Source: Alphaproteobacteria bacterium
GTDB taxonomy: Bacteria > Pseudomonadota > Alphaproteobacteria > Micropepsales > Micropepsaceae
Direction: 5' to 3'
Length of the DNA stretch: 64,000 bases
Assembly (NCBI GenBank): GCA_017308475.1
Contig: JAFKEU010000004.1
Location: 643,226 to 707,225 of the forward strand
Position numbers and translations under genes: made by a program
The notes under the pieces: generated by a model
Told to the model about the DNA's origin: nothing
Seen by the model: the letters and a program-made list of their open reading frames with translations, nothing else
Database searches by the model: none
Shown: piece after piece, positions 2,224 through 34,195 of the stretch
Position numbering within the stretch: position 1 is the stretch's first letter
How the letters are laid out: each line of letters starts with the position of its first letter

Positions 2224-2237
2224 TCAGCCAAAGAATC

Positions 2238-5026: not shown

Positions 5027-5107
5027 CCTTTCCCCTCGCCCGCGCGTCTTCTTGGCGACGGGGCAACTAGGCCGCAAAAACCTGCGGAGGGCAATTGCGA
5101 GAAGAGA

Positions 5108-6103
5108 TCAGGGCACCAGCACGGCCGCGCCCTCGAAGCGCCCGGCACGCAGATCCTCCAGCGCCTGGTTGGCCTTTTGCAGCGGATAGGCGGTTGTGCG
5201 GGTGCGGATGCCCACCCGGGGCGCCAGGGCCAGGAAATCCAGCCCGTCCTGCCGCGTCAGGTTGGCGACCGAGACAAGCTGGCGTTCCTCCCACAGCAAG
5301 TCATAGGAGAAGGCGGGAATTGGGCTCATGTGAATGCCGGCACAAACGACGCGCCCGCCCTTCTTCACGCACTTGAGCGCCTGCGGCACCAGCGCGCCCA
5401 CTGGCGCATAGATGATGGCCGCATCCAGCAATTCGGGCGGCATCTCGTCAGAGCCGCCGGCCCAGGCCGCGCCCAGGCTGACGGCGAAGCTTTGGCCCTT
5501 CGCATCGCCCCGCTGGGTGAAAGCGTAAACCCGGCGCCCCTGCCAACGCGCCACCTGGGCAATGATATGCGCCGCCGCGCCAAAGCCGTAAAGCCCGATC
5601 GCTTGGGCCTCGCCCGCCATCACCAGCGAGCGCCAGCCGATCAAACCGGCGCACAGAAGCGGCGCCAGCGCCACATCGTCCCCCGCCTCACCCTCGATCT
5701 CTTTCAGGGGAAAGGCATAGGCCGCATCGGCCAGCGCATGAGTGGCAAATCCGCCGTCGCGGGTATAGCCGGTAAAGAGCGGATCATCGCACAGATTCTC
5801 CCGCCCGCTACGGCAATAGAGGCACACGCCGCAGGTATGGCCCAGCCAGGGAATGCCCACCCGCATGCCGGGATGAAGCGTATCCACGCCCGCACCGACC
5901 TGCTCGATCCGTCCAACGATCTCGTGGCCGGGAACGATGGGCAGCTTCGGATGGGTCAGCTCGCCATCCACCACATGCAGGTCGGTGCGGCATACCCCGC
6001 AGGCCGTCACTTTCACGGTGACCTGACCGGGTCCCGCAACGGGATCGGGCAGTTCAACCCATTCCAGCGGAGTTCGGGGCTGGTTCAGGACCATCGCATG
6101 CAT
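5108..6103 (-). CDS. Zinc-dependent alcohol dehydrogenase (MDR family)
   Basis: Catalytic and structural Zn motifs are present (CGVCRTDLHVVDGE, GHEIVGRI, and a Cys cluster CGVCLYCRSGRENLC), together with a Rossmann GxGxxG-like segment LYGFGAAAH. Confidence 0.9.
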   Translation of the reverse strand: MHAMVLNQPRTPLEWVELPDPVAGPGQVTVKVTACGVCRTDLHVVDGELTHPKLPIVPGHEIVGRIEQVGAGVDTLHPGMRVGIPWLGHTCGVCLYCRSGRENLCDDPLFTGYTRDGGFATHALADAAYAFPLKEIEGEAGDDVALAPLLCAGLIGWRSLVMAGEAQAIGLYGFGAAAHIIAQVARWQGRRVYAFTQRGDAKGQSFAVSLGAAWAGGSDEMPPELLDAAIIYAPVGALVPQALKCVKKGGRVVCAGIHMSPIPAFSYDLLWEERQLVSVANLTRQDGLDFLALAPRVGIRTRTTAYPLQKANQALEDLRAGRFEGAAVLVP

Positions 6104-8974: not shown

Positions 8975-9844
8975 ATGGCCATCGACTGCGACCGCTTCCG
9001 CGTGGAGGAAGGCAAGAAGATCGACCTGGGCGAGTGGCCGACACGGGTCAAGCCGGTCTACAAGTCCAGGAAACATTATGAGGAGATGCTGGCCGAGCAT
9101 GTGGCGCGGCTGGATGAGCAGCAACAGCTTCTCTATGCCTCGGACAGCTATGCGCTGCTCGTGATCTTCCAGGCGATGGACGCCGCCGGCAAGGATGGGG
9201 CGATCCGCCATGTGATGTCGGGCGTCAATCCGCAGGGCTGCCAGGTCTTCAGCTTCAAACATCCCAGCATCAGCGAGCTGCAGCATGATTTCCTGTGGCG
9301 CACCACGCGCGACCTGCCGGAGCGCGGCCGCATCGGCATCTTCAATCGCTCGTATTACGAAGAGGTTCTGGTGGTACGGGTGCATCCCGAAATCCTGCGC
9401 AGCGAGGGACTGCCCGGCGCACCGAAAGATGACCAGAAGCTCTGGCATGGCCGCTACCGTTCGATCAACGATCTGGAGAAGCACCTGACACGCAACGGTA
9501 CGCGCATCGTAAAATTCTTCCTGCACCTGTCCAAGGACGAACAACGCAAGCGCTTCCTGGCCCGCATCGATGAACCTGAGAAAAACTGGAAATTCAGCAC
9601 CGCCGACATAGAGGAGCGCAAATTCTGGAAGCAGTATATGCACGCCTATGAGCAATGCCTGTCGAACACCAGCACAGATGAGGCGCCCTGGTATGCCGTG
9701 CCCGCCGACGACAAGGAGAATGCGCGCCTGATCGTCTCGCAGGTCATCGTTGAGGCGCTGGAAAGCCTGAAGATGCGCTATCCGCAGACCAGCGACGCAC
9801 GCAAGCGCGAGCTGCAGCAGATCCGGCGCCGCCTAGAGAAATGA
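8975..9844 (+). CDS. ppk2: Polyphosphate kinase 2 family protein
   Basis: PPK2 core [47 protein letters not shown] at 8975 follows the CoA-transferase stop. The ORF-track N-terminus (from 8729) overlaps the previous gene. Confidence 0.9.
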
Positions 9845-9955
9845 CGGCTGACGATGGGGCCGCCGTCGGGCTGGCTGACATGTGCCGCGCCAGGCTATAG
9901 GCTCGCTATCAGTTTGGACAAAAATGGCGCCCGGCGGGCGGATGGGGAGGCAAGG

Positions 9956-11143
9956 TTGCGATTTCCGGCGATAAGGCAGGTCCGCGCCTTCGTGGTACGG
10001 GGCGGCGGCGCGGACTATCACGACCAGGGCGAAGGCCATTGGATCGACGACCACATCGCCACGCCGATGGCGCGCTATGCCGAGTACCGACAGTCGCGCC
10101 AGAGCTTTGGCATCAATGTGCTGGGCACGCTGGTGGTCGAGATCGAGGCCGCCGACGGCACCATTGGCTTTGCCGTGACCACGGGCGGCGAGCCGGCCTG
10201 CTATATTGTGGAAAGGCACCTTTCGCGCTTCCTGGAAGGGCGTGATCCGATGGAAGTGGAGAAAATCTGGGACCAGATGTATTTCTCCACCCTGTTTTAT
10301 GGGCGCAAGGGACTTGTGGTCAACGCCATCTCGGGTGTGGACCTGGCGCTCTGGGATCTTCTGGGCAAACTGCGCGGCGAGCCGGTGCATCAGCTTCTGG
10401 GCGGCGCCGTGCGCGAAGAACTGCAATTCTATGCCACCGGGGCGCGGCCCGACCTGGCCAAGGACATGGGCTTCATTGGCGGCAAGATGCCGCTGCATTA
10501 CGGCCCCGGTGAAGGCGAAGAAGGCCTGAAAAAGGCGCTGACCGAGATCGCCGATATGCGCGGCCGCGTCGGTCCCGATTTCTGGCTGATGTTGGATTGC
10601 TGGATGTCGCTGGACCTGAACCATGCCACAAGGCTGGCGCGCAATGCCTGGGAAGAGTCGGGGCTGAAATGGATCGAGGAAGCCCTGTCGCCCGACGACT
10701 ATTGGGGTTATCGCGAATTGAAACGCAACGTGCCACCCGGCATGCTGGTGACCACCGGCGAGCATGAAGCCACGCGCTGGGGCTTTCGCATGCTGCTGGA
10801 GATGGATTGCTGCGACATCATCCAGCCCGATGTAGGCTGGTGCGGCGGCGTAACCGAGTTGATCAAGATCGCCAATCTGGCCGACGCGCACGGCAAACTG
10901 ATGGTACCGCACGGCTCATCAGTCTATTCCTATCACTTCGTCATCACCCGCCATAACAGTCCCTTTGCCGAATATCTGATGATGGCACCAAAGGCCGACA
11001 AGGTGGTGCCCATGTTCGCGCCGCAATTGCTGGGCGAACCGGTGCCGCAGAATGGCCGCATCAAACTGTCGGCGCTGGACAAGCCGGGGTTCGGAGTAGA
11101 GATCAATCGCGCGATCGAACTGCATCGGCCCTATCCCCGATGA
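9956..11143 (+). CDS. rhmD: L-rhamnonate dehydratase-type enolase-superfamily acid-sugar dehydratase
   Basis: Matches my recollection of E. coli RhmD/YfaW almost motif for motif ([91 protein letters not shown]). The start is uncertain; TTG at 9956 is preceded by GGGGAGG, and the ORF opens at 9854. Confidence 0.85.
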
Positions 11144-11171
11144 TGCTTTTTCTCACGCGGAGCAAACGCCC

Positions 11172-12224
11172 ATGAAAATGTCTTTCCGCTGGTATGGCGA
11201 CAGCGACTCTGTATCGCTGGCCTATATTCGCCAGATTCCCGGCATGCATGGCATCGTGTCGGCCATCTATGACGTGCCGGTGGGCGATATCTGGCCGCTG
11301 GACAAGATCAGGGCGCTGAAGGACAAGGTGGAGGCACATGGCCTGGCGCTGGAGGTGATCGAATCCGTGCCGGTCCACGAAGACATCAAGCTCGGCAAGC
11401 CCAGCCGCTATGGCCTGATCGCCAACTACCAGCAGACCATCCGCAACCTGGGCTCCTGCGGCATCAAGGTGGTCTGCTACAATTTCATGCCGGTGCTGGA
11501 CTGGGTCCGCACCAGCCTGACCAAGACGCTGCCGGACGGATCGACCACCCTGGCTTTTGACGTTGAGGAAGTCGCCGGTTTCGATATCAGCCAGGGGCTG
11601 AACCTGCCGGGCTGGGATACCAGCTATACCGCCGAAAGCTTGAAGAGCGTGCTGGCGGACTATGCGAACATCGATGCCGAAGGGCTGTGGGACAATCTGG
11701 GCTATTTCCTGAAGGGGATCGTACCGGTCGCCGAGGAAAGCGGCGTCTTCATGGCGATCCATCCCGACGATCCGCCGCGCCCCATCTTCGGCCTGCCGCG
11801 CATTGTCAAGGATCGCGACGACCTGGCGCGCATCCTCTCCATCGTGGACAGCCCGGCAAACGGGCTGACCCTTTGCTCCGGCTCGCTGGGCGCGGGGCCC
11901 CAAAACAATGTCGAAGCGCTGGTGCGCGAGTTCGGCGGCCGGGGGCGCATCCATTTTGCCCATCTGCGCAATGTCAAACTGGACGCCAACGGCAATTTCG
12001 AGGAGACGGCGCACAAATCCGACTGCGGCTCGCTGGACATTGCCGCCATCGTCAAGGCTTACCACGATGTCGGTTTCGAAGGCTACGCGCGGCCCGATCA
12101 TGGCCGCATGATCTGGGGCGAGACCGGCAAGCCCGGCTATGGCCTTTATGACCGTGCGCTGGGTGCGGTCTATCTGAACGGCCTGTGGGAGGCGATCGAC
12201 AAATTCGCGGCTGCGCGGGACTGA
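11172..12224 (+). CDS. uxuA: Mannonate dehydratase family (UxuA-type)
   Basis: N-terminus [33 protein letters not shown] and a length of about 350 aa are characteristic of the UxuA family. It starts 28 nt after rhmD. Confidence 0.85.
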
Positions 12225-12277
12225 CGCGCGCGCGACCAAACGGGCCTATATACCTATATATAAGAGGGGGCGGGGAA

Positions 12278-13543
12278 ATGCCGAGAATTCGCTGGCTGAT
12301 GATCTGGCTGTGCTTCCTGGCCAACGCCATCGGCTATATCGACCGCGCCAATCTCGCGGTGGCAACGCCGTTCATCCGTGCCGAACTTGGCATCGACGCC
12401 GCCGCCATGGGCCTGGTGCTCAGCGCTTTCTTCTGGACCTATGCGGTCATGCAGCTACCCGCCGGCTGGATCATCGACAAGCTGGGCGTGCGCATCAGCC
12501 TGGCTGCAGCGGTGGCCTGGTGGTCACTGTTTACCATGGCGACGGGTCTGGCGCGCGGTGTCACCCAGTTCATCGGCATGCGCCTAATGCTGGGCGTTGG
12601 CGAGGCGGCCTCCCAGCCGTCCTTCGCCAAGGTGGCGTTCAACTGGTTTCCCCGGCGCGAACGCGCCACCGCCTGTTCCATCTTCAACAGCGGATCGACG
12701 GCGGGATCGGCCCTGTCCTTGCCGCTGGTCACCTGGCTGATCATGATGCTGGGTTGGCGTGGCTCCTTCATCGTCACCGGCCTTCTGGGCGTAGCTTGGG
12801 CGCTGGCCTGGTGGTTCATATATCGCGACCCGGAACGCTACCGCGCGATCGCACCGGAGCAGGTGGACCGCCTTTTGGCCGAGCGCGGCGCGCCGGTCGC
12901 ATCGGCCGTGCCAATCCGGTGGCTGGACCTGTTCCGCTACCGGTCGGTTTGGGGCCTGATGATCGGGCTGTTCTGCCTGAATTTCGCGATCTATTTCTTC
13001 ATCACATGGTTTCCTTCCTATCTGATTCAGGCGCGCGGCTTCTCGCTGGCCTCGCTGGGCACGCTGGGCATGCTGCCCGCAATCATGGCGATCTTCGGCA
13101 ACTGGATCGGCGGCTGGACCTCGGATCGGCTTATCCGGGCAGGTTGGAGCCCGACGCGGGCGCGCAAGACCTGCCTGGTGGGCGGCATGTTGATGTCGTC
13201 CTGCATCGGGCTGTCGGCCTTCGTGGAAAGCACCTGGGCGTGCCTGGCGCTGTTCACCCTCGCCTATGCCAGTCTCTCTTTCACCGGCGCCAATTGCTGG
13301 ACGGTGGTGAGCGAGATCGCGCCGACGCCCGCCCATGTCGCTTCCATCGGCGGCATCCAGAATTTCGCAGGCAACCTGGCGGGCATCCTGATCACCACCT
13401 TCACGGGCGTTATGTTGACCATCACCAGCGGTTCCTTCCTGGTCCCGCTGGCGGTGGCGGGGGCGCTCTGCGTGCTGGGTGCGATGTCCTATCTGTTCCT
13501 GCTGGGCATGGTCGAACCGCTGCCGCCGCTTGCGACCCGCTAG
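12278..13543 (+). CDS. MFS transporter, anion:cation symporter (ACS) type (aldonate/hexuronate-like)
   Basis: Twelve hydrophobic segments. ACS-type N-terminus WLMIWLCFLANAIGYIDRANLAVA. ATG at 12278 is preceded by GAGGGGGCGGGG. Confidence 0.85.
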   Translation: MPRIRWLMIWLCFLANAIGYIDRANLAVATPFIRAELGIDAAAMGLVLSAFFWTYAVMQLPAGWIIDKLGVRISLAAAVAWWSLFTMATGLARGVTQFIGMRLMLGVGEAASQPSFAKVAFNWFPRRERATACSIFNSGSTAGSALSLPLVTWLIMMLGWRGSFIVTGLLGVAWALAWWFIYRDPERYRAIAPEQVDRLLAERGAPVASAVPIRWLDLFRYRSVWGLMIGLFCLNFAIYFFITWFPSYLIQARGFSLASLGTLGMLPAIMAIFGNWIGGWTSDRLIRAGWSPTRARKTCLVGGMLMSSCIGLSAFVESTWACLALFTLAYASLSFTGANCWTVVSEIAPTPAHVASIGGIQNFAGNLAGILITTFTGVMLTITSGSFLVPLAVAGALCVLGAMSYLFLLGMVEPLPPLATR

Positions 13544-14304
13544 GAGAATTCCCGCAACCAGCCAAGGCCGGCCAGCGTGCCGGCAGCGGGCCGGTATTCG
13601 CAGCCGATGAAACCATCATAGCCTAACCGCTCGATGGTCTTCAGCACCATCCGGTCATCCAGTTCGCCCGTCATGGGCTCGGCGCGGTCCGGCACCGAAG
13701 CAATCTGGATATGCCCGGTGATGGGCATCAGAGCTCCCAGCCCCCTGATGACGTCGCCGCGCAGAACCTGGCGATGATAGATGTCGAACTGCAGTTTCAG
13801 GTTTGGGCGGTTCACATCGGCAATAACCTGCTGTGCCAGCTCGAAATCGTTCAGCAGATAGCCGGGCACGTCACGCCGGTTCAGCGGCTCGATGGTTACG
13901 ATGATGCCGTGCGCCGCGGCGACCTCACAGGCCAGAACCAGCGAGTCCTTGTAATTGGCGAGCGCGGCGGGCCCCTCGGCGATGCCCGCCATCACATGCA
14001 GACAATTTGTTCCGGTCGCCTCGGCATAGCGCAGCGCCGCGTCCAGCGCGGCGCGGAAATCCCCCCGCCGCTCCGGCAGGGCCGCAAGGCCGCGTTCGCC
14101 CTTCGCCAGATCGCCTGGCGGCAGGTTGATCAGCGCCATTGCCAGCCTGTAACGCGCCAGATGCCGCGCGATCGCATCCGCATCGTGGTCATATGGAAAC
14201 AGGCATTCCACAGCGGAAAAACCGGCATCCGCCGCGGCGGCGAAGCGGTCGAAGAAATCCCATTCCTGGAACAGCCAGGAGATGTTGGCGGCGAACTTCA
14301 GCAT
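13540..14304 (-). CDS. Hydroxypyruvate isomerase / 2-oxo-tetronate isomerase (Hyi/OtnI) family TIM barrel
   Basis: N-terminus MLKFAANISWLFQEWDFFDRFAAAADAGFSAVECLFPY is typical of the Hyi family. ATGA overlap with the upstream DUF126 gene at 14304. Its stop shares the CTAG tetranucleotide with the convergent MFS gene. Confidence 0.8.
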   Translation of the reverse strand: MLKFAANISWLFQEWDFFDRFAAAADAGFSAVECLFPYDHDADAIARHLARYRLAMALINLPPGDLAKGERGLAALPERRGDFRAALDAALRYAEATGTNCLHVMAGIAEGPAALANYKDSLVLACEVAAAHGIIVTIEPLNRRDVPGYLLNDFELAQQVIADVNRPNLKLQFDIYHRQVLRGDVIRGLGALMPITGHIQIASVPDRAEPMTGELDDRMVLKTIERLGYDGFIGCEYRPAAGTLAGLGWLREFS

Positions 14305-14711
14305 CAGCGACTCAGTATGGTGACGCGGCCCTCAACCGGCTCGACCAGAAGTTCGTCTCCGGTCCGGATCAGCGCCGTCACGTCGCCGTCGAACCGGTCC
14401 AGCAGCGGTACGCCGGCAAAGGCCGCGCCCTGGGCCAGGATCGGATTGACGCGGTTGAACAGGAACGCCGCCGGGATCAGCCCGCGCGCCGCCATGTCGC
14501 GCAGCATCCAGGCAGAGGCCACGCCGCCCTTTACGGTGTTCAGCACCAGGATGCGCCCGGCATAGCTTTGGCCGTAAAGTGCATGGCCGGGGCGGGAAAA
14601 GATGCCCTTGATTCGGTCCAGGTCGTAGCGCGCACTGAAATTGTCCTGCGCCACCAGCGCGATGCCCCGGACCGCCGCACCGATGCCGCAATGGGCGAAT
14701 AGGACAGCCAT
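14304..14711 (-). CDS. Aconitase X swivel-domain subunit (DUF126)
   Basis: 135-aa protein (ALVAQDNFSARYDLDRIKGIFS, ILVLNTVKGGVASAWML) resembling the DUF126/AcnX small subunit. ATGA overlaps on both sides (14711 and 14304). The rest of the 349-aa ORF is antisense noise. Confidence 0.75.
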   Translation of the reverse strand: MAVLFAHCGIGAAVRGIALVAQDNFSARYDLDRIKGIFSRPGHALYGQSYAGRILVLNTVKGGVASAWMLRDMAARGLIPAAFLFNRVNPILAQGAAFAGVPLLDRFDGDVTALIRTGDELLVEPVEGRVTILSR

Positions 14712-15952
14712 CACATCCTTCCCGCCACGGCAGCGTCGATGCATTGTTCGGTGGTGCCCAGGCTGGGCAGATAGCCATAGCCGCCAATTATATTGACCAG
14801 CTTGGCGGAGTTGGACATCAGCCGCTTCCAGCCATTGGCCTCGGCTATCTCGCGCGCATAGCTTTGATAGAAGCAGACGCCCGACAGAAGCAGCGCGCCC
14901 GAGGCTTCGATGCGCGCCGTCAACCCCATTCGGTCGGCGGCAGCCTTGTTTTCGGGCGAGGTTGCAATCAAAAGCGCCGTGTCCCGGTGCACGCGGCGGC
15001 CGCCGACCAGCGCGGCGATTTCTTCCAGCTCGAACAGCGAAAGCTGCGGCGCTGCGAAGACCACCACATCCACTTTCTCGCCCGGCGCGGCATAGCGCGC
15101 CCTGAAGGCATCGAGATCGGCGCGGGTCACGATCGCCGGGACGGGCGGCGGACCGTCGAACACCTCGTGCGCCTTGCGGCATTCCGGCGTCACCCCTTCC
15201 ATGTGGAACAGCGCCACCGAGCCAAAGCTGGCCAATGCCGCGCCGAAATGCTTCAACTCGTCCGAGGTCGGCGCGCCGTCGATGCCTTCCAGTACCGGCA
15301 CCTCCCAATAGCTGCCGGCGATGCTGCCCACGATGCCGCCCAGGGCGCCCCATTCGCTCCAGTCGCGGGGCCGGTCCCGGACCACGATGCGCTTCGTGCC
15401 CCGCCGGCCGCTATCCAGGTGATAGCCATAGCGTGGGGTGCGCCCAGTCAGCGCGGCGGCGACGGCCGACGGGCCACCCTCGAAATTGCTGCGTGCGCCC
15501 ATCACGCTGTTGGAATAGATCACAACGCCCGTGTCACCCATTGCCAGATGCTCGCCCAGCACCGGGGGAAACACGGTTTGGTAATTGATGCAGGTGTTGG
15601 TCATCAACACGCCAAGCGCTTCCAGTGCATCGCTGGTGCGTTTCTCCAGCGCCGCCATCGCGTCGGTCTGCTTCAGCCTGGCATAGGAGGAAAAATCCAG
15701 TCCGCGCGGATCGGTTATGGTGGGAATGCGCACCCGCCGCTGGTCCCTTGGCGCCGCGGCCAGTCCCTCCAGAAACGCAATACCGGCCTCGCCCAGTGAT
15801 TCGGTGTCGCCCATGATGTGCGCCTGAGATACTGGCACCAGGTCTTCGGCGTCGAAGAAATGGCCCACGGCAAGCTGGTGCGCGATCGCCCAGCGGCGCG
15901 GGCTCCCCGCCTCGCCCGCCAGCATGGCTTTTTCCTCGTCATTCAGGCGCAT
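14711..15952 (-). CDS. Aconitase X catalytic subunit (DUF521)
   Basis: N-terminus MRLNDEEKAMLAGEAG..WAIAHQLAVGHFFDAEDLVPVSQAHIMGD and a length of about 413 aa fit the DUF521 family. Start at the ATG at 15952. Confidence 0.8.
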   Translation of the reverse strand: MRLNDEEKAMLAGEAGSPRRWAIAHQLAVGHFFDAEDLVPVSQAHIMGDTESLGEAGIAFLEGLAAAPRDQRRVRIPTITDPRGLDFSSYARLKQTDAMAALEKRTSDALEALGVLMTNTCINYQTVFPPVLGEHLAMGDTGVVIYSNSVMGARSNFEGGPSAVAAALTGRTPRYGYHLDSGRRGTKRIVVRDRPRDWSEWGALGGIVGSIAGSYWEVPVLEGIDGAPTSDELKHFGAALASFGSVALFHMEGVTPECRKAHEVFDGPPPVPAIVTRADLDAFRARYAAPGEKVDVVVFAAPQLSLFELEEIAALVGGRRVHRDTALLIATSPENKAAADRMGLTARIEASGALLLSGVCFYQSYAREIAEANGWKRLMSNSAKLVNIIGGYGYLPSLGTTEQCIDAAVAGRM

Positions 15953-17168
15953 GTTCCGGTTCCACAAATTTCCGCTCTGGATGCATATAAAAGGCCGCAA
16001 CCACGCCCGCCAGCATCAGGATCGCGGACATGGCAAAGGGCAGGTGCCAGCTTCCTGTGGCATCGATGATCCAGCCGAAGAACCAGGGCGAGATGATGCC
16101 CGCCACCGCCGAGCCGAAATTCATGAAGCCGCTGGCGGTGCCGGCGTAGGCCGGGGCGATGTCCATCGGCACCGCCCAGAGCGGGGCGATCACCAGTTCC
16201 ATTGAGAAGAAGGCAAGAGTCAGAGACAGCGACACCAGCGTCAGGTCATGCAGCGCCACCACGGGGATGAAAAACAGCGTGGAGCCGGCCAGCCCCGCCG
16301 CGATCAGGTTGCGCCGCGCCTTCACCACACTGCCGGTGCGCGCCAGGATGCGGTCGCTCATCAGTCCGCCCAGCGTGTCCCCCACGATCCCAGCCAGGAA
16401 GATGCCCGAGGTAAATAGCGCCGAGGATTGCAGCGACAGGCCATAGCTGTGGCGGAAGAACAGAGGCAGCCAGTTCAGGCACACCCAGAGCGACCAGCCA
16501 TAGCAGAAGTCGGTGACGATCACCGGCAGCATCCGGCGGAACAGGGCACGCACCGGGGCGCGCAACGTCTGCCTGGGAGGTTCCGCCGCCCGGTCGGGCG
16601 GATGATCGCGGAAGAAAACGAACCAGATAGCCACCCAGACCAGCGACATCACGCCTACGATGATGAAGGAGCCGCGCCAGGACACCTCCAGGATCAGCGC
16701 CGCCACAAAGACCGGCGTTACGGAATTGGCGATGCGGGAGAAAGTATGAGCGATGCCCTGCGCCAAGCTCCAGCGCGCCGGATCGATCCAGTTGGTGATC
16801 ACCCGGGTGGCCACCGCAAGGCTGGGCCCCTCGCCCACGCCCAGAAGCGCGCGCACCGCCACCAGCGATCCCAGTCCGCCGACAAAGCCGGTCAGCACCG
16901 TGGCGGCGGAAAAGATCAGGCCGGAGATGGTGAAGACCAGGCGCGGTCCCAGCCCGTCGGCCAGCCAGCCGCCGATCAACTGGATGAAGGCATACGGGTA
17001 GCTGTAAGCGGAAAAGGCATAGCCCAGCTGGGTATTGGTGAGATGGAATTCGCGCTGGATGTCGGCGGCCGCGGTGGCCAGGTTCACGCGGTCCATATAG
17101 GTGATGAAATAGATGGCGCAGACCATCACCAGCACCCAAGTGCCGCCGCGCCCGCGCGATACTGTCAC
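15939..17168 (-). CDS. MFS transporter (ACS-type), second copy
   Basis: Multi-TM protein with FITYMDRVNLATAAADIQ near the N-terminus. GTG start at 17168 forms a GTGA overlap with the stop of the upstream enolase-family gene. Its 3' end overlaps the DUF521 start by 14 nt. Confidence 0.8.
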   Translation of the reverse strand: MTVSRGRGGTWVLVMVCAIYFITYMDRVNLATAAADIQREFHLTNTQLGYAFSAYSYPYAFIQLIGGWLADGLGPRLVFTISGLIFSAATVLTGFVGGLGSLVAVRALLGVGEGPSLAVATRVITNWIDPARWSLAQGIAHTFSRIANSVTPVFVAALILEVSWRGSFIIVGVMSLVWVAIWFVFFRDHPPDRAAEPPRQTLRAPVRALFRRMLPVIVTDFCYGWSLWVCLNWLPLFFRHSYGLSLQSSALFTSGIFLAGIVGDTLGGLMSDRILARTGSVVKARRNLIAAGLAGSTLFFIPVVALHDLTLVSLSLTLAFFSMELVIAPLWAVPMDIAPAYAGTASGFMNFGSAVAGIISPWFFGWIIDATGSWHLPFAMSAILMLAGVVAAFYMHPERKFVEPEHAPE

Positions 17169-18391
17169 GAGGTCACCGCATAACGTGCCGCGATTTCCTC
17201 GTTGAGTGCCAGCCCCAACCCCGGGCGCCCATTCAACACCAGTGCGCCTTTTTCCACCTGTTCCGGCGGATCGGTCAGTTCGGCGCGCCACGGCACTTCG
17301 CCATAGGAAAATTCCAGGATGTTGAAATTGGGAGCGGTAGCGACGACATGGGCGGCGGCGGCGTTGCCGATCGGGCTGGCCGGCCCGTGCGGCGAAACCA
17401 GCAGCCCGGCACCTTCCGCCAGCGCAGCGATCTTCTTCAGCTCCAGCATGCCACCACATACCTTTACGTCAGGCATCACAATGTCGGCGGCGCCGGCCCG
17501 GATATAGGGATAAAAGCCCTCGACCCCGTGAATGCCTTCGCCGCCGGCTGTCGGCATGGGCGCAGCCTTGCGGATGACCGCCAGGTGCTCGGCATTCTGC
17601 GCGGGCGTCACCTCCTCAAGCCAATAGAGATTGAGGGAACGCATCCGCGCCATCAGGTCGATGCCCTCCGAAGGCGTGAAATGACTGTGGGCGTCGACCA
17701 GCAGATCGCGCTGATCGCCGATGGTTTGACGCACGGCTCCGGCACAGGCAATGCCCGCCTCCATCGCCCGCTCGAATTTGACCCGATCAGCGCCGCCGTT
17801 CGGCAATAAGTGGATGCCGCGCGGCATGTCGTCGAAGGGCGCCAGCTTGAATGCGTCGAAGCCGTCCGCCAACGCCTTTCCGGCCATCGCGGCAAAACCG
17901 TCGGGCGTACGCGGATCGGTGGAGCGGTTGATATTGGCGTAAAGGCGGATGTGCTGCTGGATGCGCCCGCCCATCAGGTCATGGCAGGGCAGAGACAGCG
18001 CCTTGCCCTGAATGTCCCACAGGCACTGCTCAAGCGCACTGGCAGCCACCGCGGCGGGCGTGCGGCCATACGATCCCGTTATCGCCAGCGTGGGCGCCAC
18101 GGCTCGGCGGAACCATTCCACCTCCAGCGCGGCACGGCCCTTCAGCAGATCGGCAAACTGTTTGAGATAGGTCAGGCACTGGGCGTCGTTCAAGCTTTGC
18201 GAAGCATCGCCCAAACCGGTCAGACCACTGGTGGTGGACAGACGAGGAATAATCCAGTTGCCGCGCCTGTTGACATGAATCCGAAAGACTTCAAGCCTGC
18301 CGATGGAAAGGCGCGCATTTTCTGCCCGCGCCGCGCGCGACGACAGCAGCGGCAATGCGCCCAATCCCTGCAGCACCGAACGGCGCTTCAT
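17165..18391 (-). CDS. Mandelate racemase/muconate lactonizing enzyme (enolase superfamily) protein with twin-arginine leader
   Basis: Leader MKRRSVLQGLGALPLLSSRAARA-EN. MR/MLE barrel segments with plausible metal ligands (LLVDAHSH, LYWLEEV, TAGGEGI) and PDVKVCGG. Confidence 0.85.
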   Translation of the reverse strand: MKRRSVLQGLGALPLLSSRAARAENARLSIGRLEVFRIHVNRRGNWIIPRLSTTSGLTGLGDASQSLNDAQCLTYLKQFADLLKGRAALEVEWFRRAVAPTLAITGSYGRTPAAVAASALEQCLWDIQGKALSLPCHDLMGGRIQQHIRLYANINRSTDPRTPDGFAAMAGKALADGFDAFKLAPFDDMPRGIHLLPNGGADRVKFERAMEAGIACAGAVRQTIGDQRDLLVDAHSHFTPSEGIDLMARMRSLNLYWLEEVTPAQNAEHLAVIRKAAPMPTAGGEGIHGVEGFYPYIRAGAADIVMPDVKVCGGMLELKKIAALAEGAGLLVSPHGPASPIGNAAAAHVVATAPNFNILEFSYGEVPWRAELTDPPEQVEKGALVLNGRPGLGLALNEEIAARYAVTS

Positions 18392-18482
18392 GCGAATTCC
18401 CCCGTCACGCGCCTGCCGGCGTCCTGTTATGGTGCCAGCATAGCGGCAGGAGCAGCGCCGGCGCAGCAATTTTTTGGGGCGT

Positions 18483-20150
18483 TCAGGGAGCCTGCCAGTC
18501 GAGTTGCAGCAGCGAGATAGCCTGGCGCGGCAGATCAGTTGTCACGGTAACGGTACCCTTCGACACCGCCAGCCAGCGTGGCGATTCCAGCAACTGCAAG
18601 CCTTCCTGCGCCTTCAGCGCCGCAAGCTGCTCGGGGGTCGGCTTCTGCGGCGATCCCATCGCCTTCCACGCCGTATAGGCATTGGAATGCGTGTCGTCGA
18701 TCCGGTAGTGGATCAGCCGCGCACGGCCTGCCGTGGGGGGCAATCCGCGCACCGTCACAGTGACAGAAGCCGCAGGTGCGGGTCGGTCTTCATCGTGGTA
18801 ATTCCACACCATCACCGCCGCGCCACGGCCATTGGCGGTGGCAAATGCGTCGATATCGGGCGCGCCGCGCACGCCATCGGCGATAATCTGGCCAGAGCCC
18901 ATCGCGCCATTGGCGGCCGCCGCCACGCGGCTTCCCTGCATCAGACCGGCCATGCGGAAGAAATTGAGCACCGGCTTGTCGATGCCATTGGTCGACAGCG
19001 AGCGGAAGCCTTCGAAATAGTCGCGGCCTTCGAACTCGAACGACCAGCTCAGCATCGAAATCAGGTCGATGCCGTAATGGTCCGCCAGTTCGAACAGCCG
19101 CTTGTACGCCGCCGCCGTATAGGCGGGATAGAGCGTGCCATTGCGATAGGCATTGGCGGGATTGATCTTCATCGAGCAGGCCGCGCAGCCTTCCGGGTCG
19201 GCTTCCGACAGGATCACCGGCAGCTTCCGGAACTGCGGGTACCGCGCGATGATCGCAAACCCTTTGTCGGCGTCATTCAGCTCCTTGGCCAGACCCATGG
19301 TCACTTGGCCGTCCTGGATGTGCGGCTGGCCCTTCACATGGAACGAGATGAAATCCATCGGCACTTTGGTGGATCCGACATGGTCGAGAAAATCTTCCAG
19401 GAATTTTGCCGCCTTGGGATTGCCCGGCCCGGTGGTGGCCGGCCCGCCAACCCTCGCCTCCGGCAATGCCGCCCGCACGCCCGCCACAGTGCGATCATAG
19501 AGTTCGAAATATTGCTGCGGCGTGCCGTGCCAATAGGAAATGTCCGGCTCGTTCCAGACTTCGAAATACCATTTCGCGACCGTGGCACGGCCATAGCGCT
19601 GCACCATGTGTGCCACGACCTGGCGGATCATTGCCTGCCATTTGGCATAGTCATTCGGCGGACTGTGCACCGCACCGCCAGTGGATGCGCCAGGATAATG
19701 GTCCGCATATTCGCCGCTGCCGCTTGCCAGCGCCTTGGGGGTGAAGCCCAGCTCGAACATCGGCACCACACCGGCATCGCGATATTCATCAAAGATGGAA
19801 TCCAGGATGCGGAAGTCATAGACCGGCCGGCCCTGCGCATCCTCGGAATAGACGTTGGTGGAACTCCATTTCAGGTCCGCCACGCCGTCGCCCGAACTGA
19901 GCAGGTGATGGGTGCGGATATGCACCGGCACCGGCGCCAGATCGTGCAGCTCGCGCAACAGCTTCCTGCCGTCGCGCATGGTCGTGTAATTGGCTTCGTC
20001 ATAGCCGAACCAGGCATAGATCGGCTTATAGGGCCCAAGCCTGTGGGAAACATCCACCGTGACGGCGACGGGTGCAGGCTGCTGCGCCATGACGGCTCCG
20101 CCGCACAGCAGCGGCAGCAGCATCGCCAAGCAATACCCGATCGGCTTCAT
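18483..20150 (-). CDS. Secreted glycoside hydrolase family 39 (beta-xylosidase / alpha-L-iduronidase-like)
   Basis: Signal peptide MKPIGYCLAMLLPLLCGGAVMAQQ. GH39 acid/base region KWYFEVWNEPD. ATG at 20150 is preceded by GGGAGGGACA. Confidence 0.85.
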   Translation of the reverse strand: MKPIGYCLAMLLPLLCGGAVMAQQPAPVAVTVDVSHRLGPYKPIYAWFGYDEANYTTMRDGRKLLRELHDLAPVPVHIRTHHLLSSGDGVADLKWSSTNVYSEDAQGRPVYDFRILDSIFDEYRDAGVVPMFELGFTPKALASGSGEYADHYPGASTGGAVHSPPNDYAKWQAMIRQVVAHMVQRYGRATVAKWYFEVWNEPDISYWHGTPQQYFELYDRTVAGVRAALPEARVGGPATTGPGNPKAAKFLEDFLDHVGSTKVPMDFISFHVKGQPHIQDGQVTMGLAKELNDADKGFAIIARYPQFRKLPVILSEADPEGCAACSMKINPANAYRNGTLYPAYTAAAYKRLFELADHYGIDLISMLSWSFEFEGRDYFEGFRSLSTNGIDKPVLNFFRMAGLMQGSRVAAAANGAMGSGQIIADGVRGAPDIDAFATANGRGAAVMVWNYHDEDRPAPAASVTVTVRGLPPTAGRARLIHYRIDDTHSNAYTAWKAMGSPQKPTPEQLAALKAQEGLQLLESPRWLAVSKGTVTVTTDLPRQAISLLQLDWQAP

Positions 20151-20877
20151 TGTCCCTCCCCCGGGGGCGCCCAAGTGTGAAGACGCTGGACCAATATTCT
20201 GGCGGGCCAGTGTTCCGGCCGGCCTGCCCTGCCGGACGAATCCCTGGAACAATAGCATCCCGACTCGCATGAGCGAATGGCTGGCCCCCGGCAGAAACAT
20301 CATGGCTGCATCAAACGTCGTCCGCTTTGCGCCAAAAGCCGCCTTTCAAGGCGGTAACAGGGCGACGGCAACCGCCTGGTGGAGATTCCCCGCCCTGCCC
20401 ATATCCCGAAACAGCCCGTTCCACTCGCGCAGATTCGGGCTGGGTGATGCCATCCTGTTCGGGCGGCTGCTCTCTGCCGCCGATGCCACGGCAATCGAAC
20501 GGCGCATGATGGCTGCGTAGCCGGGGACCTGACGAGAAATCTCGGTCTAGCACGAGGGTTTTGGAACGCGGAATTGCGCAGGCGAACACTCCCCCGCTTT
20601 GTGCAATCGCTAACAGCGACTGTACAGGGCGTTGCAGTGTGTATGAGACCCGCTCCAAATGGGCGGGATGCGACGATGCTTCCCATTCGGAGGCGGGCGA
20701 TCGCGATCGACACCTGTGACATTTTGGAGACGCCAGGTGCCCCTGTGACGAAAACACCGCCAGGCGGTGCCCTGGGCACATTCCGGTATCGGATCTGCCC
20801 GGCAAAAACCCCATTCCCGCCATACTGTGTGCGCAAGCTGCATGCTGATGTCGCTAGGGTAATAGGAGAGAACATCA

Positions 20878-21462
20878 ATGCAGAGAATTAAGCCTGCAAT
20901 CGTCGCAGCCATAACCGCTGGCGCCTTCAGTCTCGGAGGCTGCGCAACCAAAGACTATGTCAATGAGCGGGTGGCGGCCGTGAACGCCAAAGCGGAGACC
21001 ACCCAAAACCAGGTGAATCAGCAACAAGCACATTTGGCCAAGCTCGACCAGACGACCCAGGATGCCCTCAACCGCGCCGAGGCCGCCGGCAAACTCGCCG
21101 AGGGAAAATTCCTCTACTCCATGGTTTTGTCAGACGATTCGGTGAAGTTTCCGCTGGACAGCTCCAAACTCTCGACAGAAGCCCAGCAGCGCCTGCTGGA
21201 CTTTGTGGACAAGCTGAAAAACGAAAACCGCAATGTCTATCTGGAAATCCAGGGCCATACGGATTCGAGCGGATCGAAGCCCGTCAACCAGAGGCTGGGT
21301 GAGGAGCGAGCCGAGGCCGTGCGTCTTTTCCTGAACGAGCACGGCGTGGCCCTGAACCGCATGTCGACCATCTCTTATGGGGAACAGAACCCGGTAGCCG
21401 ACAATAAGACCCGGGTTGGCCGCGCAGAAAACCGGCGCGTGGTGTTGATTGTAATGTCATGA
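20878..21462 (+). CDS. Lipoprotein with Lpp-like coiled coil fused to an OmpA C-terminal (peptidoglycan-binding) domain
   Basis: Lipobox FSLGGC. Heptad-like segment VAAVNAKAETTQNQVNQQQAHLAKLDQTTQDALNRAEAA. OmpA_C motifs are present (LEIQGHTDSSGS, NQRLGEERAEAV, NRRVVL). Confidence 0.85.
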   Translation: MQRIKPAIVAAITAGAFSLGGCATKDYVNERVAAVNAKAETTQNQVNQQQAHLAKLDQTTQDALNRAEAAGKLAEGKFLYSMVLSDDSVKFPLDSSKLSTEAQQRLLDFVDKLKNENRNVYLEIQGHTDSSGSKPVNQRLGEERAEAVRLFLNEHGVALNRMSTISYGEQNPVADNKTRVGRAENRRVVLIVMS

Positions 21463-21510
21463 TCGATCGGGGGCTGGCCTAGTGTCGGGCCGGCCCCTAT
21501 CCTGCCCGTT

Positions 21511-22272
21511 TCACAGCCTGCCTTGGCCGCGCAAACCCAGAAGGTCTGACCAGCGCCAGTCGCCCCCGCCAATAGCAAAGCGCGTGCCTCCTTCCGCCAG
21601 TGACAGCAGTACCAGTCCGTGCATTCTTGCCTCGCGGCAGGCCCGCGGCGCGAACGCCACTTCCCACATGACTGCCTCACGCACGGCCGCGAGACCCTTT
21701 CCCTCTTGACCGCTCGACCGCACCCAATCGCCATTCCAGAGCAGAATAGCTTTCCCCATCAAGCGGGCGTCCGCCACCGCGGTGTGCACCAGTGCATCGC
21801 GCCGTAGGGCCTCCTGCACCAGCCGCCCCGTGTCGCAGCCCCCCCCACCTGCACCGCCTTCGCCTGCGCGCATTGCCCCGGCAAGTTGAGATTCACTAAG
21901 CAAGTTCGAATCGGCCAAAGGCTCGCTTTCAGCCGTGACCACTTCGGGCATAACCGGGTGCGGCAGCGTTGGCTGTATGAGATTGATCTCAGGTGCCCCC
22001 TCAGTCTGGACTTCTGTGGCCCTGGGCAGACCCGGTTGCATGGGGGCCTCAGTCAGGCTCACCAATAATGGCGGAGGTTCTGTGTGCGGCGGCGGCGCGG
22101 CATAGGGCCAAAACACTGTGGCCAACACTATCAGGTGCACGGCCACGCTGAACACCACAGCCAGGAAGCGGATGCGACCGCTGCTTGACGGCGGACCCGC
22201 GCCGCCGTCGTGCGGCAGTCCTTTGCGCAGCGCCGCCTCTTCCAAACCCCTATCCACCACGGACGGCCTCAT
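21511..22272 (-). CDS. Hypothetical membrane-anchored protein with Pro-rich linker (family not recognised)
   Basis: One TM segment (FLAVVFSVAVHLIVLATVFW) followed by a Pro-rich spacer (AAPPPHTEPPPLL). The frame looks codon-biased, but I recognise no family for the C-terminal domain. Confidence 0.5.
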   Translation of the reverse strand: MRPSVVDRGLEEAALRKGLPHDGGAGPPSSSGRIRFLAVVFSVAVHLIVLATVFWPYAAPPPHTEPPPLLVSLTEAPMQPGLPRATEVQTEGAPEINLIQPTLPHPVMPEVVTAESEPLADSNLLSESQLAGAMRAGEGGAGGGGCDTGRLVQEALRRDALVHTAVADARLMGKAILLWNGDWVRSSGQEGKGLAAVREAVMWEVAFAPRACREARMHGLVLLSLAEGGTRFAIGGGDWRWSDLLGLRGQGRL

Positions 22273-22706
22273 CCGACATCACAGTAGGCCTGCCAAAACA
22301 CCACGCTCGGTAGCATATTATCCCGCGTTCGCTATTGACCCGCCTCCGAAAACAACATCATCGCCGCATTCAACCGACCACTGATCCGCAAGACACCGAA
22401 AATCAAAAAAATCTAATTACGGCGAAACGCCCCCTTCGCCGGTTCCCTCTCAGAAGAACCGGAAAAGTCGGCAGCATTTGGACCTCGCGCGTGGGTTTTC
22501 AGACAGAAACCTGCGTTTTCTTGAAATTGTGGGGGGCTAGCCGGTACTTCATTTGCAGGAAAAGCCCGCTACCGATCGGGGAAGGGGTTTTCAAAAAACA
22601 ACTAGGAAGCCGGCGGGCAGAGTTGCCGGTAAACCGGTGCTGCCTTTATCAAATCGCCCACCGGCTCTGATGGACGCGGCGGGACGGGATTGGGGGCGCC
22701 GCTGCA

Positions 22707-23015
22707 TCAGGCCGGGGCGTATTTGCGGAATTCGCCCTCGGTCTGGTCGATCTGGCCGGCCAGGCTGCGCATCGTGGCCTGGTCGCTCTCCAGAACCAGG
22801 CGGTAACTCAGCCGGGAAATCTCGGCGCCCGCAAGTCGCAGCCGCACGGCATCCACCCAGCTGACGGCGTCCTTGTCGATGAAGCTCGAATAGCTGGAAT
22901 CCATCGAACGCATTTCGGTCACGGTGAAGGCGGTGCCACCGAGAATGATCAGCGCGAGCACGGCGATTGGGCCGATGACCTTGCTGCGGATTGTCAAATT
23001 CTGAAACCAGTTCAC
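22707..23015 (-). CDS. 102-aa protein resembling only the N-terminal TM + 4HB sensor start of a methyl-accepting chemotaxis protein (probable gene remnant)
   Basis: VNWFQNLTIRSKVIGPIAVLALIILGG... resembles the canonical MCP N-terminus. GTG at 23015 has a good SD (AAAGGAGGGG). There are no HAMP or signalling domains, and the ORF stops inside what would be the sensor domain. Confidence 0.45.
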   Translation of the reverse strand: MNWFQNLTIRSKVIGPIAVLALIILGGTAFTVTEMRSMDSSYSSFIDKDAVSWVDAVRLRLAGAEISRLSYRLVLESDQATMRSLAGQIDQTEGEFRKYAPA

Positions 23016-30767: not shown

Positions 30768-30829
30768 GAATGGAATCTCCCCTCGACTTATTGTTTATGG
30801 GACGAACCTAACCTTTCCGCCCCCCAAGG

Positions 30830-30856
30830 AAAAAGGGCGGGATTTGCGCCCCGCCC
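30830..30856 (-). terminator. Intrinsic terminator downstream of the aldehyde dehydrogenase gene
   Basis: The minus strand reads GGGCGGG-GCGCAAAT-CCCGCCC-TTTTTCC, a perfect 7-bp GC stem plus a U-tract. It lies 28 nt after the stop at 30884. Confidence 0.6.
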
Positions 30857-30883
30857 ATTTCCGAACCGCATGTGGCCGTTCCC

Positions 30884-32323: not shown

Positions 32324-32899
32324 ATCTCTCCGGGATGGGTGCGAGGGTATTTAAGGGGTTGAGCGGCCCAATCCAACCCTGTTGACGCATCGCAGCGGTG
32401 CCAGGGTGACATGCCTTGCCAAAAGATTACCCCTCGCCCCCGGATGGCCCGGGCGGCACGAATAGCGCCGCCAGCCTTGCCCTGGACCGCGCCTGTTCCG
32501 CCGCCAGCCACTGCGCCGCCGCGGCGGCCTGTCCGCACGCGCCGATCAGACGCTCGAGGCGGGCGAAACGCAGCCGGTCGGCGGCCGTTTTGGGGCGAAA
32601 TTTCCTCACCCCTCCCCCTTGTCCAGCAGGGGCCTGTCCACCGGGCGTCTGGCCACCAAGCGTCTGGCCACGCGGGCGCGCGGGCGCCGGAGAATTGTGA
32701 GGATTGCCGATGGGGACCGCTTTTCCATGCCGCCATTCTAGCCAGCCTGGACACCGTGTGGATTGGCGCACGCGGCGGACTGGCCCCGATGTGCCGGACG
32801 ACAATGGCGAAAATAAAGTCTGCCGGGAGGTGGACAAGGGCACGAACGGGCGGCCGCCCTGTTCATGCCCCCAAGGATCGCCCACCAGCAATCTCGCGC

Positions 32900-32996: not shown

Positions 32997-33035
32997 AATT
33001 CGTTATTTTGATTATCGGCAATCGCGCGCAGACCC

Positions 33036-34184: not shown

Positions 34185-34195
34185 GGATATATCTC

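Follow-up and report, generated by a model that had tools for sequence, protein, structure and literature searches.

Two reactions are described for aconitase X (AcnX). Type-I/IIa enzymes, among them AtAcnX of Agrobacterium tumefaciens (Atu4683; structure 7CNP) and the Azospirillum-type enzymes, dehydrate cis-3-hydroxy-L-proline (C3LHyp). The Type-IIb enzyme TkAcnX of Thermococcus kodakarensis (TK1249/TK1248; structure 7CNR) dehydrates mevalonate-5-phosphate; its large and swivel subunits are separate proteins, and Cys110, Cys283 and Cys342 are the ligands of its [4Fe-4S]/[3Fe-4S] cluster. A serine of the swivel domain (Ser62 in TkAcnX and Ser70 in AtAcnX) abstracts the C2 proton (PMC8184944). 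Bacterial AcnX proteins of Type-IIc to IIf also have two subunits, carry no landmark residue of either known activity and were described as uncharacterized (Watanabe et al. 2021, PMC8184944), and our literature search found no later paper assigning them. Here, we analyze an AcnX pair, AcnXL and AcnXS, that is encoded within a string of six minus-strand genes at positions 13540-20150 of a 64,000-nucleotide stretch of an alphaproteobacterial genome of the family Micropepsaceae (assembly GCA_017308475.1, contig JAFKEU010000004.1). We refer to the whole 64,000-nucleotide stretch as the window.

Outside the AcnX family, a chemical parallel is offered by the IlvD/EDD Fe-S dehydratases of L-arabinonate and D-xylonate in the Weimberg and Dahms routes. 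Their cluster coordination is similar to that of AcnX (PMC8184944), whereas their fold and family are unrelated. By analogy, they illustrate how an Fe-S cluster could serve as a Lewis acid for a 2,3-elimination in a kinase-free route.

The initial annotation of this DNA had proposed that the six genes, which encode a GH39 glycoside hydrolase, an MR/MLE enolase-superfamily protein with a twin-arginine leader, an MFS porter (MFS1), AcnXL, AcnXS and a Hyi/OtnI-like isomerase, form one operon and one acid-sugar pathway. ORF (open reading frame) listing and Pfam and NCBIfam searches confirmed all six genes, their positions and their families (Table 1). The reading that we prefer, at a probability of about 0.5, is that the string is a mosaic of three independently gained or lost modules in which AcnX would act as an Fe-S dehydratase; co-transcription, protein export, all substrates and the AcnX reaction are what we infer from sequence and gene context.

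AcnX family membership and active-site residues

Genes were taken from an ORF listing with translation, and families were assigned by Pfam and NCBIfam profile searches. Both AcnX subunits exceed their Pfam cutoffs, AcnXL with 367.9 bits against 31.5 (PF04412) and AcnXS with 75.8 bits against 27 (PF01989). Relatives were collected in a scan of one genome per species, which gave 80 loci; annotation of their surroundings covered the roughly 35 commonest neighbor families, and rare families were not all annotated. In all 80 loci, the AcnXL and AcnXS genes are adjacent wherever the contig permits a view.

If the pair had one of the two known activities, its membership in the Pfam families AcnX and AcnX_swivel would be expected, and the sole NCBIfam match of AcnXL is indeed the C3LHyp dehydratase equivalog NF051439. 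However, AcnXL reaches only 191.1 bits on that model, which has a cutoff of 700 bits, and AcnXS reaches 23.8 bits. Among solved structures, the best match of AcnXL is TkAcnX (182 bits, against 113 bits for AtAcnX), and AcnXS gives 37 bits to the Thermococcus protein.

Residue equivalences were read from HMMER and MAFFT alignments to AtAcnX and TkAcnX, with residue roles taken from PMC8184944. AcnXL retains two of the cluster ligands as C121 and C360 (Tk Cys110 and Cys342) and also the active-site lysine, here Lys384 (Tk Lys361, At Lys530). The Glu-Ser-Ser/Asn motif of the 3-OH/carboxylate site reads Asp140-Thr141-Gly142; Tk Glu129 is thus replaced by Asp140, and this pair shares with the Type-IIb enzyme the succession of an acidic and a hydroxyl residue. 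The side chains for binding of the carboxylate and the 3-OH (Lys384, the acid at position 140 and Thr141) are kept. The third cluster ligand is gone, Ala301 standing in place of Tk Cys283 (At Ser449), and Tyr362 is found where AtAcnX has Cys510. In having no more than two homologous cysteines, the pair is like Type-IIa as described in PMC8184944.

The residues that distinguish the two known activities are replaced as well. Those that contact the nitrogen or ring of proline in AtAcnX have become Met47 of AcnXL (At Asp203), Ala66 and Arg29 of AcnXS (Thr72 and Trp35) and a residue other than isoleucine (Ile206). Of the phosphate-specific residues of TkAcnX, Asn79 is Asp81 here and Asn53 is not conserved. 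Arg29, which lies in an invariant FSARYDLD motif, also corresponds to Tk Leu27. The catalytic serine of the swivel domain is Gly64 in AcnXS, in a gap-free alignment of GKGSTVGSY with AKGGVASAW. All of these substitutions and retained residues are invariant in the 80 homologs, which are 61-89% identical. Since the carboxylate/3-OH site is kept throughout the clade but one cluster ligand and the catalytic serine are lost, its chemistry or its catalytic base must differ.

The neighborhoods agree with the residues. No hydroxyproline or mevalonate enzyme is among the roughly 35 commonest neighbor families of the 80 loci, and neither is any proline-racemase-like, D-amino-acid-oxidase-type or Pyr2C-reductase-type protein. 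The absence of hydroxyproline neighbors noted at first in the window thus extends to the commonest neighbor families of its relatives, and there is no mevalonate context in this bacterial host. Given these observations, we consider it very improbable that the pair is a C3LHyp or mevalonate-5-phosphate dehydratase. As judged from its sequence, it belongs to the AcnX family and to neither characterized functional group, in line with the original expectation.

The pair fits the description that was given for the uncharacterized Type-IIc to IIf subclasses as a group. PMC8184944 makes no mention of the change of serine to glycine or of a link with acid-sugar genes. Our literature search found nothing characterizing this AcnX subclass, the six-gene operon or its pathway, and no published pathway to which the operon had been assigned. 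The proposal of a new AcnX function therefore holds in part: the pair is unassigned and is probably acid-sugar related, whereas Type-IIc to IIf had already been flagged as uncharacterized.

Gene neighborhoods of AcnX relatives

We counted neighbors within 10 kb of each AcnX locus systematically by tblastn and compared two tiers of relatives. Every genome locus with an AcnXL of at least 72% identity has an enolase-superfamily or NHL neighbor, whereas none of the 77 loci at 71% identity or less has an enolase-superfamily, HpcH, DHDPS, NHL, UxuA or GH39 gene in that range. The closer tier shows its acid-sugar context in four architectures: the window lineage, the type of loci L002 and L099, locus L098 and locus L001.

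In the two Rhizomicrobium loci, L002 and L099, a Sec-exported NHL/SGL beta-propeller (L002:7312-8676 and L099:6333-7676, 91% identical to each other) lies directly upstream of MFS-AcnXL-AcnXS. This order parallels that of the window, with an exported enzyme followed by porter and AcnX. L099 additionally carries, 4.5 kb from the cassette, a 61%-identical MR/MLE gene with an RR leader in a GGT-MR/MLE-DHDPS operon. In L098, a 5.6-Mb genome with an AcnXL of 73% identity, the pair is part of a tight operon in the order IclR-HpcH aldolase-MR/MLE-SDR-AcnXL-AcnXS-TctC-TctC; its MR/MLE protein has 4GGB as the best solved match, and the nearest matches of its aldolase are HpcH and 2-dehydro-3-deoxygalactarate aldolases. 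L001 (AcnXL 76%) has two enolase-superfamily genes upstream. An acid-sugar role for the AcnX subclade of at least 72% identity is supported by these neighborhoods.

The more distant tier, at 58-71% identity, looks different. Its neighbors are TctC and TRAP transporters, GntR regulators, an aldo-keto reductase (AKR) together with a TauD-like protein, a DUF3604-like protein, acyl-CoA ligases, a sulfatase and a ComDE-like split enzyme dependent on thiamine pyrophosphate. At 58% identity, the AcnX pair of Pseudorhizobium banfieldiae NT-26 plasmid p1 (L102, 8001-17215) heads an operon of malate synthase G (glcB), a GlcG-like protein, the glycolate oxidase subunits GlcD/E/F and acetyl-CoA synthetase, with a GntR regulator and a TRAP transporter divergent to it. 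This operon links the wider AcnX clade to C2/C4 acid metabolism. On a Sulfitobacter plasmid, the pair sits beside split class-I fumarase-like and succinate dehydrogenase (SDH)-like genes. In the plasmid collection, AcnX relatives reach at most 62% identity and serve as context, not as orthologs of the closer subclade. In Methylobacterium (L008 and L014), MFS-AcnXL-AcnXS adjoins a GntR/UTRA regulator.

These contexts give substance to a different reading, in which the substrate of the MFS-AcnX cassette is a small hydroxy(di)carboxylate with three or four carbons (C3-C4), for example tartrate, glycerate or malate. A single step would yield a central 2-oxo or enoate metabolite, and the cassette would be no more than a passenger in the operon. 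In most relatives, the pair has no partners other than a transporter for carboxylates (TctC, TRAP or MFS) and a GntR regulator, the NT-26 and Sulfitobacter plasmids supply the neighbors just described, and a ComDE-like 2-oxo-acid decarboxylase precedes the pair in Bradyrhizobium and Afipia. Moreover, the invariant Arg29 of AcnXS sits where the solved AcnX structures contact the distal part of the substrate, which hints that the AcnX substrate carries a further group that is polar or anionic. Against this reading, the subclade of at least 72% identity is always found in acid-sugar contexts, and porters of the ACS (anion:cation symporter) type of MFS also transport hexonates and hexuronates. We regard a small-acid substrate for the pair in the window as a serious alternative, though a rather unlikely one.

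An organosulfonate role for AcnX was considered and rejected. TauD-like, sulfatase, ComDE-like and TauE neighbors are scattered (13, 3, 2 and 2 loci, respectively), and their NCBIfam matches are weak or absent.

The co-occurrence raised in the initial annotation is thus seen with acid-sugar genes at 72% identity or more and disappears below it. Outside the window lineage, GH39 and RR-leader MR/MLE genes are never adjacent to AcnX in the 80-locus scan, and the sole occurrence of Hyi is in L014, where a gene of 38% identity lies at a distance of 7 kb.

Junctions and locus variants of the six-gene string

The junctions of the string were read base by base from the DNA. Four of them are overlaps, and the remaining one is the 91-nt gap at 18392-18482. 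The GTGA overlap of the MR/MLE and MFS1 genes (17165-17168) and the 14-nt overlap of MFS1 and AcnXL (ATGCGCCTGAATGA, 15939-15952) were as first annotated, and so was the gap. The two junctions originally given as ATGA had to be corrected. That of AcnXL and AcnXS reads GTGATG, allowing either a GTG start at 14714, with 4 nt (GTGA) common to the two genes, or an ATG start at 14711, with 1 nt in common, and that of AcnXS and Hyi reads TGATG, a 1-nt overlap at 14304. These corrections leave the picture of tight coupling unchanged, and from its junctions, the string is probably one transcript in the window organism.

Other sequence signals add little. Scans for consensus promoters and terminators were uninformative in this genome of 65% GC, giving 12 weak hairpins against 6.2 expected, all inside coding sequence. 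An Rfam scan of 9000-23000 at an E value of 0.1 or less gave no match, and hence no riboswitch or leader was identified there. By GC and GC3 per gene, the MFS-AcnX cassette is not compositionally foreign.

To place the string among its relatives, we compared loci of about 72-93% protein identity. Related loci are mostly contigs of metagenome-assembled genomes (MAGs), and the nearest named relatives of the window organism are Rhizomicrobium MAGs. The full six-gene string with the same four overlaps is found in L095-L097, independent metagenome contigs of about 90% identity, and the overlaps are also seen in L081 and L083 after extension of the alignments. Because the same overlaps recur in independent contigs, the arrangement is not an assembly accident.

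Beyond these contigs, the string comes apart. L003 and the P0004 contig have GH39, MFS, AcnXL, AcnXS and Hyi, with a remnant of only 26-37 amino acids of the MR/MLE C terminus between GH39 and MFS1 (8708-8785 in L003; a 37-amino-acid ORF in P0004). This remnant indicates a lineage in which the MR/MLE gene was deleted and the other genes of the string stayed in place. L081-L084 have the order MR/MLE-MFS-AcnXL-AcnXS-Hyi and no GH39. L091, which is equally close (UxuA 91%, RhamD 89% and MR/MLE 85% identical), has GH39-MR/MLE-Hyi and no MFS-AcnX. In the more distant contigs L092-L094, GH39, MR/MLE and AcnX are absent, and only Hyi facing the convergent MFS2-UxuA genes is left. The string is therefore conserved only in the nearest relatives and is unstable even there. 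Since its parts are present or absent independently, we divide it into three modules: GH39 with MR/MLE; MFS-AcnXL-AcnXS; and Hyi, which goes with the convergent MFS2, UxuA and L-rhamnonate dehydratase (RhamD) genes.

These variants bear directly on the one linear pathway that was originally proposed, in which GH39 would free a sugar, the periplasmic MR/MLE enzyme process it, MFS1 import the product, AcnX dehydrate it and Hyi isomerize it. The six co-oriented genes with coupled junctions, found again as a full string in L095-L097, favor such a pathway. So does the presence of an exported enzyme ahead of MFS-AcnX in two lineages (the Tat-MR/MLE protein in the window and the Sec-exported NHL beta-propeller in L002 and L099), as well as the Tat-MR/MLE ortholog near the cassette in L099. 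However, the elements can be dispensed with one by one, as close relatives show that lack one of them and have the rest (L003, L081/L083 and L091), and Hyi covaries with MFS2-UxuA, not with AcnX. None of the 77 more distant AcnX loci has a GH39 or MR/MLE neighbor, the single distant Hyi-like gene being that of L014. On chemical grounds, moreover, the 2-oxo-3-deoxy product expected of either dehydratase would lack the alpha-hydroxy-carbonyl that a Hyi/OtnI-type isomerase needs. Thus, the six genes are not a conserved unit, and we think it improbable that they form one dedicated pathway.

Predicted exported proteins, porter and isomerase of the string

The MR/MLE protein begins with the leader MKRRSVLQGLGALPLLSSRAARA/EN, which has an RR-x-hydrophobic motif, an h-region and an AxA cleavage site. 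The RR leader reported in the initial annotation proved to be real and conserved. Among the 120 closest homologs (60-85% identity), 103 have the RR motif and start with M(N/K)RRS(V/L)LQ, and most of those without it look like truncated gene calls. The neighbors of RR-leader homologs (including L085, L087, L089 and L099) are sulfatases with FGE-sulfatase, TonB-dependent receptors, a PQQ (pyrroloquinoline quinone) dehydrogenase, a Pel9A-like protein and gamma-glutamyltranspeptidase, which are periplasmic or outer-membrane functions. Leader and neighbors together suggest that the MR/MLE protein is exported by the twin-arginine translocation (Tat) system and is probably periplasmic.

Its function is less sharply defined. 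The protein scores below all NCBIfam equivalog cutoffs (gluconate/galactonate dehydratase, 175 against 750 bits; others, 150 against 311 and 149 against 550), and the functionally defined equivalogs, including GalD, ManD, RhamD and TalrD, are not reached. Its best solved relative is 2QQ6 (160 bits), and the closest solved structures have no assigned function. Compared with 2QQ6 and 2OX4, the motifs VD233AH235, LE259E260, GGE285 and PH335G are kept. By homology, D233, E259/E260 and E285 would be metal ligands and H235 and H335 acid-base residues. The protein thus resembles an acid-sugar dehydratase in sequence and belongs to a large unstudied family that is apparently exported. Our literature search found no paper on Tat-exported enolase-superfamily (MR/MLE) enzymes.

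GH39 has a Sec-type leader, MKPIGYCLAMLLPLLCGGAVMA/QQ, and an ATG start at 20150 preceded by the Shine-Dalgarno (SD) sequence GGGAGGG. Its PF01229 match spans the catalytic (beta/alpha)8 domain. It is far from the solved beta-xylosidases (130 bits) and alpha-L-iduronidase (72 bits), and from its sequence, we take it to be an accessory exported front-end gene. The 727 nt upstream of GH39 (20151-20877), which separate it from a divergent OmpA-family gene, contain no convincing gene, only ORFs without a Pfam match. Rfam gave no match in this region, and the corresponding stretches of L003 and L091 are not similar to it.

The best NCBIfam match of MFS1 is TIGR00893, the D-galactonate-transporter subfamily, at 195 bits against a cutoff of 395. 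In Rhizomicrobium (L002 and L099) and Methylobacterium (L008 and L014), the gene immediately upstream of AcnXL is an MFS1 ortholog (54-71% identity), and MFS1 is accordingly the predicted uptake partner in the MFS-AcnX cassette.

The Hyi-like protein has a full-length but marginal match to the model of OtnI, the 2-oxo-tetronate isomerase (YgbM) of L-threonate and D-erythronate catabolism (NF043033, 318.2 against 325 bits), and scores 175 bits against YgbM of E. coli. Its score on TIGR03234, the model for hydroxypyruvate isomerase, is 271.5 bits, below the cutoff of 353.45. OtnI also isomerizes 2-oxo-L-idonate, a C6 2-oxo-aldonate, in vitro (PMC12994016). The usual OtnI partners LtnD/DenD, OtnK and OtnC are absent; neither the window region nor the related loci contain a DUF1537 kinase, a class-II aldolase-type decarboxylase or LtnD. 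At this locus, MFS2-UxuA takes their place as the conserved partner. The Hyi-like and MFS2 genes share 4 nt at their stop codons (13540-13543), so that a terminator has no room between them, and this convergent pairing is kept in L081, L091, L092, L093 and L095, with or without AcnX and even where every other neighbor is different. As read from sequence and synteny, the Hyi-like gene belongs evolutionarily with the convergent MFS2-UxuA module and is a near-OtnI paralog in a non-OtnI context.

Convergent operon and remainder of the window

The plus-strand operon that faces the string encodes a RhamD/LRA3-type L-rhamnonate dehydratase, the D-mannonate dehydratase UxuA and MFS2 (Table 1). The first of these matches 2OZ3 with 760 bits and the RhamD structures of Salmonella and E. 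coli with 549 bits; both it and UxuA are ordinary enzymes of their kinds.

Table 1. Features of the six-gene string and of the convergent operon, with window coordinates
Feature	Coordinates	Strand	Evidence
L-rhamnonate dehydratase, RhamD/LRA3 type	9956..11143	plus	NF011968, 752.7 vs 393 bits; TTG start 9956 with SD
UxuA, D-mannonate dehydratase	11172..12224	plus	TIGR00695, 410.6 vs 199.55 bits
MFS2, second ACS-type porter	12278..13543	plus	TIGR00893, 312 vs 395 bits; ATG start 12278 with SD
Hyi/OtnI-like TIM barrel, xylose-isomerase fold	13540..14304	minus	NF043033 and TIGR03234, below cutoff
AcnXS, AcnX small (swivel) subunit	14304..14714	minus	PF01989, 75.8 bits
AcnXL, AcnX large (catalytic) subunit	14711..15952	minus	PF04412, 367.9 bits
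MFS1, ACS-type organic-anion porter	15939..17168	minus	PF07690 (MFS_1)
MR/MLE enolase-superfamily protein, twin-arginine leader	17165..18391	minus	PF13378, 184.6 bits; PF02746
Only intergenic gap of the string, 91 nt	18392..18482	minus	SD-like GGGGGA 8 nt before MR/MLE ATG; no Rfam match
GH39 glycoside hydrolase	18483..20150	minus	PF01229, 207.6 bits over residues 98-515; Sec-type signal peptide

The closest described counterpart of this operon is the nonphosphorylative L-rhamnose pathway (LRA1-LRA4; E. coli yfaXWVU), which likewise combines L-rhamnonate dehydratase with an MFS porter. In L095, the convergent operon additionally has RhaT, a lactonase-like Amidohydro_2 protein and a divergent SDR, and by analogy it resembles the LRA1-3 steps of that pathway. 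The cluster differs in having no aldolase for 2-keto-3-deoxy-L-rhamnonate (L-KDR; HpcH) and no LRA5/6 pair, and in the interleaving of UxuA and the OtnI-like isomerase. A PPK2 polyphosphate kinase gene (8975-9844, plus strand) lies between a CoA-transferase gene and the rhamnonate dehydratase gene; it is also present in L091, with a 61-amino-acid remnant in L081 and L083.

Two further groups of catabolic genes are found in the window. At 62-6103 are genes for two PQQ dehydrogenases, a Sec-exported NHL/SGL lactonase-like protein, an Amidohydro_2 protein with a weak L-fucono-1,5-lactonase match and a zinc-dependent alcohol dehydrogenase (Zn-ADH). Together, these enzymes could oxidize aldoses to aldonates in the periplasm. 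At 29622-37403 is a second catabolic cluster with a lactonase-like beta-propeller, an aldehyde dehydrogenase (ALDH), an FAH-family gene, an IolE-like TIM barrel, an IclR regulator and an SDR. Its ALDH resembles alpha-ketoglutarate-semialdehyde dehydrogenase, with about 500 bits, below the model cutoff, and the cluster looks like a nonphosphorylative sugar-acid route. Within it, an 859-amino-acid ORF (33036-35615, minus strand) overlaps a 381-amino-acid ORF (34196-35341, minus strand) in another frame. The sole domain of the long ORF, FAH, lies in its 3' third, whereas the 381-amino-acid ORF has coding-like GC3; high GC content probably explains the long ORF as an artefact.

The initial annotation had remarked that the string lacks the usual kinase and aldolase. 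Because the window encodes the enzyme types of oxidative, nonphosphorylative sugar routes (PQQ dehydrogenases, lactonase-like proteins, an FAH-family protein, ALDH and SDR), the lack of a kinase and an aldolase is not in itself unusual.

Discussion

In the mosaic that we propose, the first module would be an extracytoplasmic front end made of the Sec-exported GH39 and the Tat-exported, acid-sugar-dehydratase-like MR/MLE protein. Together with the nearby PQQ dehydrogenases and lactonase-like proteins, these enzymes would act outside the cytoplasm to form sugar acids or alter them, and the two ACS-type porters, MFS1 and MFS2, would import them. The second module, MFS-AcnXL-AcnXS, would be a self-contained cassette for uptake and conversion, with AcnX as a cytoplasmic Fe-S-dependent dehydratase of an imported acid sugar or other 2,3-dihydroxy or 3-hydroxy carboxylate. 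AcnX would remove the 3-OH and the 2-H in a 2,3-elimination and give a 2-oxo-3-deoxy acid. This is the regiochemistry of the two known AcnX reactions and also of IlvD/EDD, UxuA and the enolase-type sugar-acid dehydratases; AcnX, UxuA and RhamD, which have different folds, may handle different stereoisomers. In the third module, the OtnI/Hyi-like isomerase would interconvert 2-oxo-3-hydroxy and 3-oxo-2-hydroxy acids and go with the MFS2-UxuA-L-rhamnonate dehydratase operon. With the PQQ dehydrogenases and the lactonase-like, FAH-family, ALDH and SDR proteins, the modules would support oxidative, kinase-free catabolism of several sugar acids.

We propose a 2,3-elimination of an acid sugar for AcnX because the carboxylate/3-OH site is kept, because the partners of the subclade of at least 72% identity are lactonase-like, aldolase and enolase-type proteins and because the regiochemistry matches that of known AcnX enzymes. 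An alternative placement of AcnX, as a second, Weimberg-type dehydratase acting on 2-oxo-3-deoxy acids, was rejected on chemistry, since the leaving hydroxyl would be gamma to the carboxylate.

Several observations weigh against the proposed mosaic and its AcnX reaction. The AcnX clade has neither the serine base (G64) nor the third cluster ligand, and for this reason its chemistry may differ from a simple dehydration. Relatives at 58-71% identity share all invariant active-site residues yet occupy nonsugar contexts, which could point to a small C2-C4 hydroxy acid as the substrate and not an aldonate. The tier of at least 72% identity consists of few independent lineages and mostly of MAG-derived loci. 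Three sugar-acid dehydratases are already present at the locus, so a fourth would need a distinct substrate. Finally, the 177-nt spacer between MR/MLE and Hyi in L091 has no deletion scar and no remnant of MFS1 or AcnX, as would fit either insertion or clean loss of the cassette.

We also put forward, tentatively and as a possibility that we would not bet on, a broader interpretation. The AcnX subclade of at least 72% identity might represent a fourth structural class of sugar-acid dehydratase, with a two-cysteine Fe-S site and a base different from the usual serine of the swivel domain, that in the window lineage acts downstream of an undescribed Tat-exported periplasmic family of the enolase superfamily. 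Together, the two would provide a kinase-free route from periplasm to cytoplasm for glycan-derived sugar acids.

Only two AcnX activities are known, and a subclade of the family is now tied to acid-sugar clusters in four independent architectures. MFS-AcnXL-AcnXS is the minimal testable unit and gives a concrete handle on an orphan AcnX subclass. The locus also calls for caution, in that tight coupling of an operon need not mean one pathway if its parts are rearranged among close relatives. If the RR-leader MR/MLE proteins are periplasmic, then sugar-acid dehydration can occur outside the cytoplasm.

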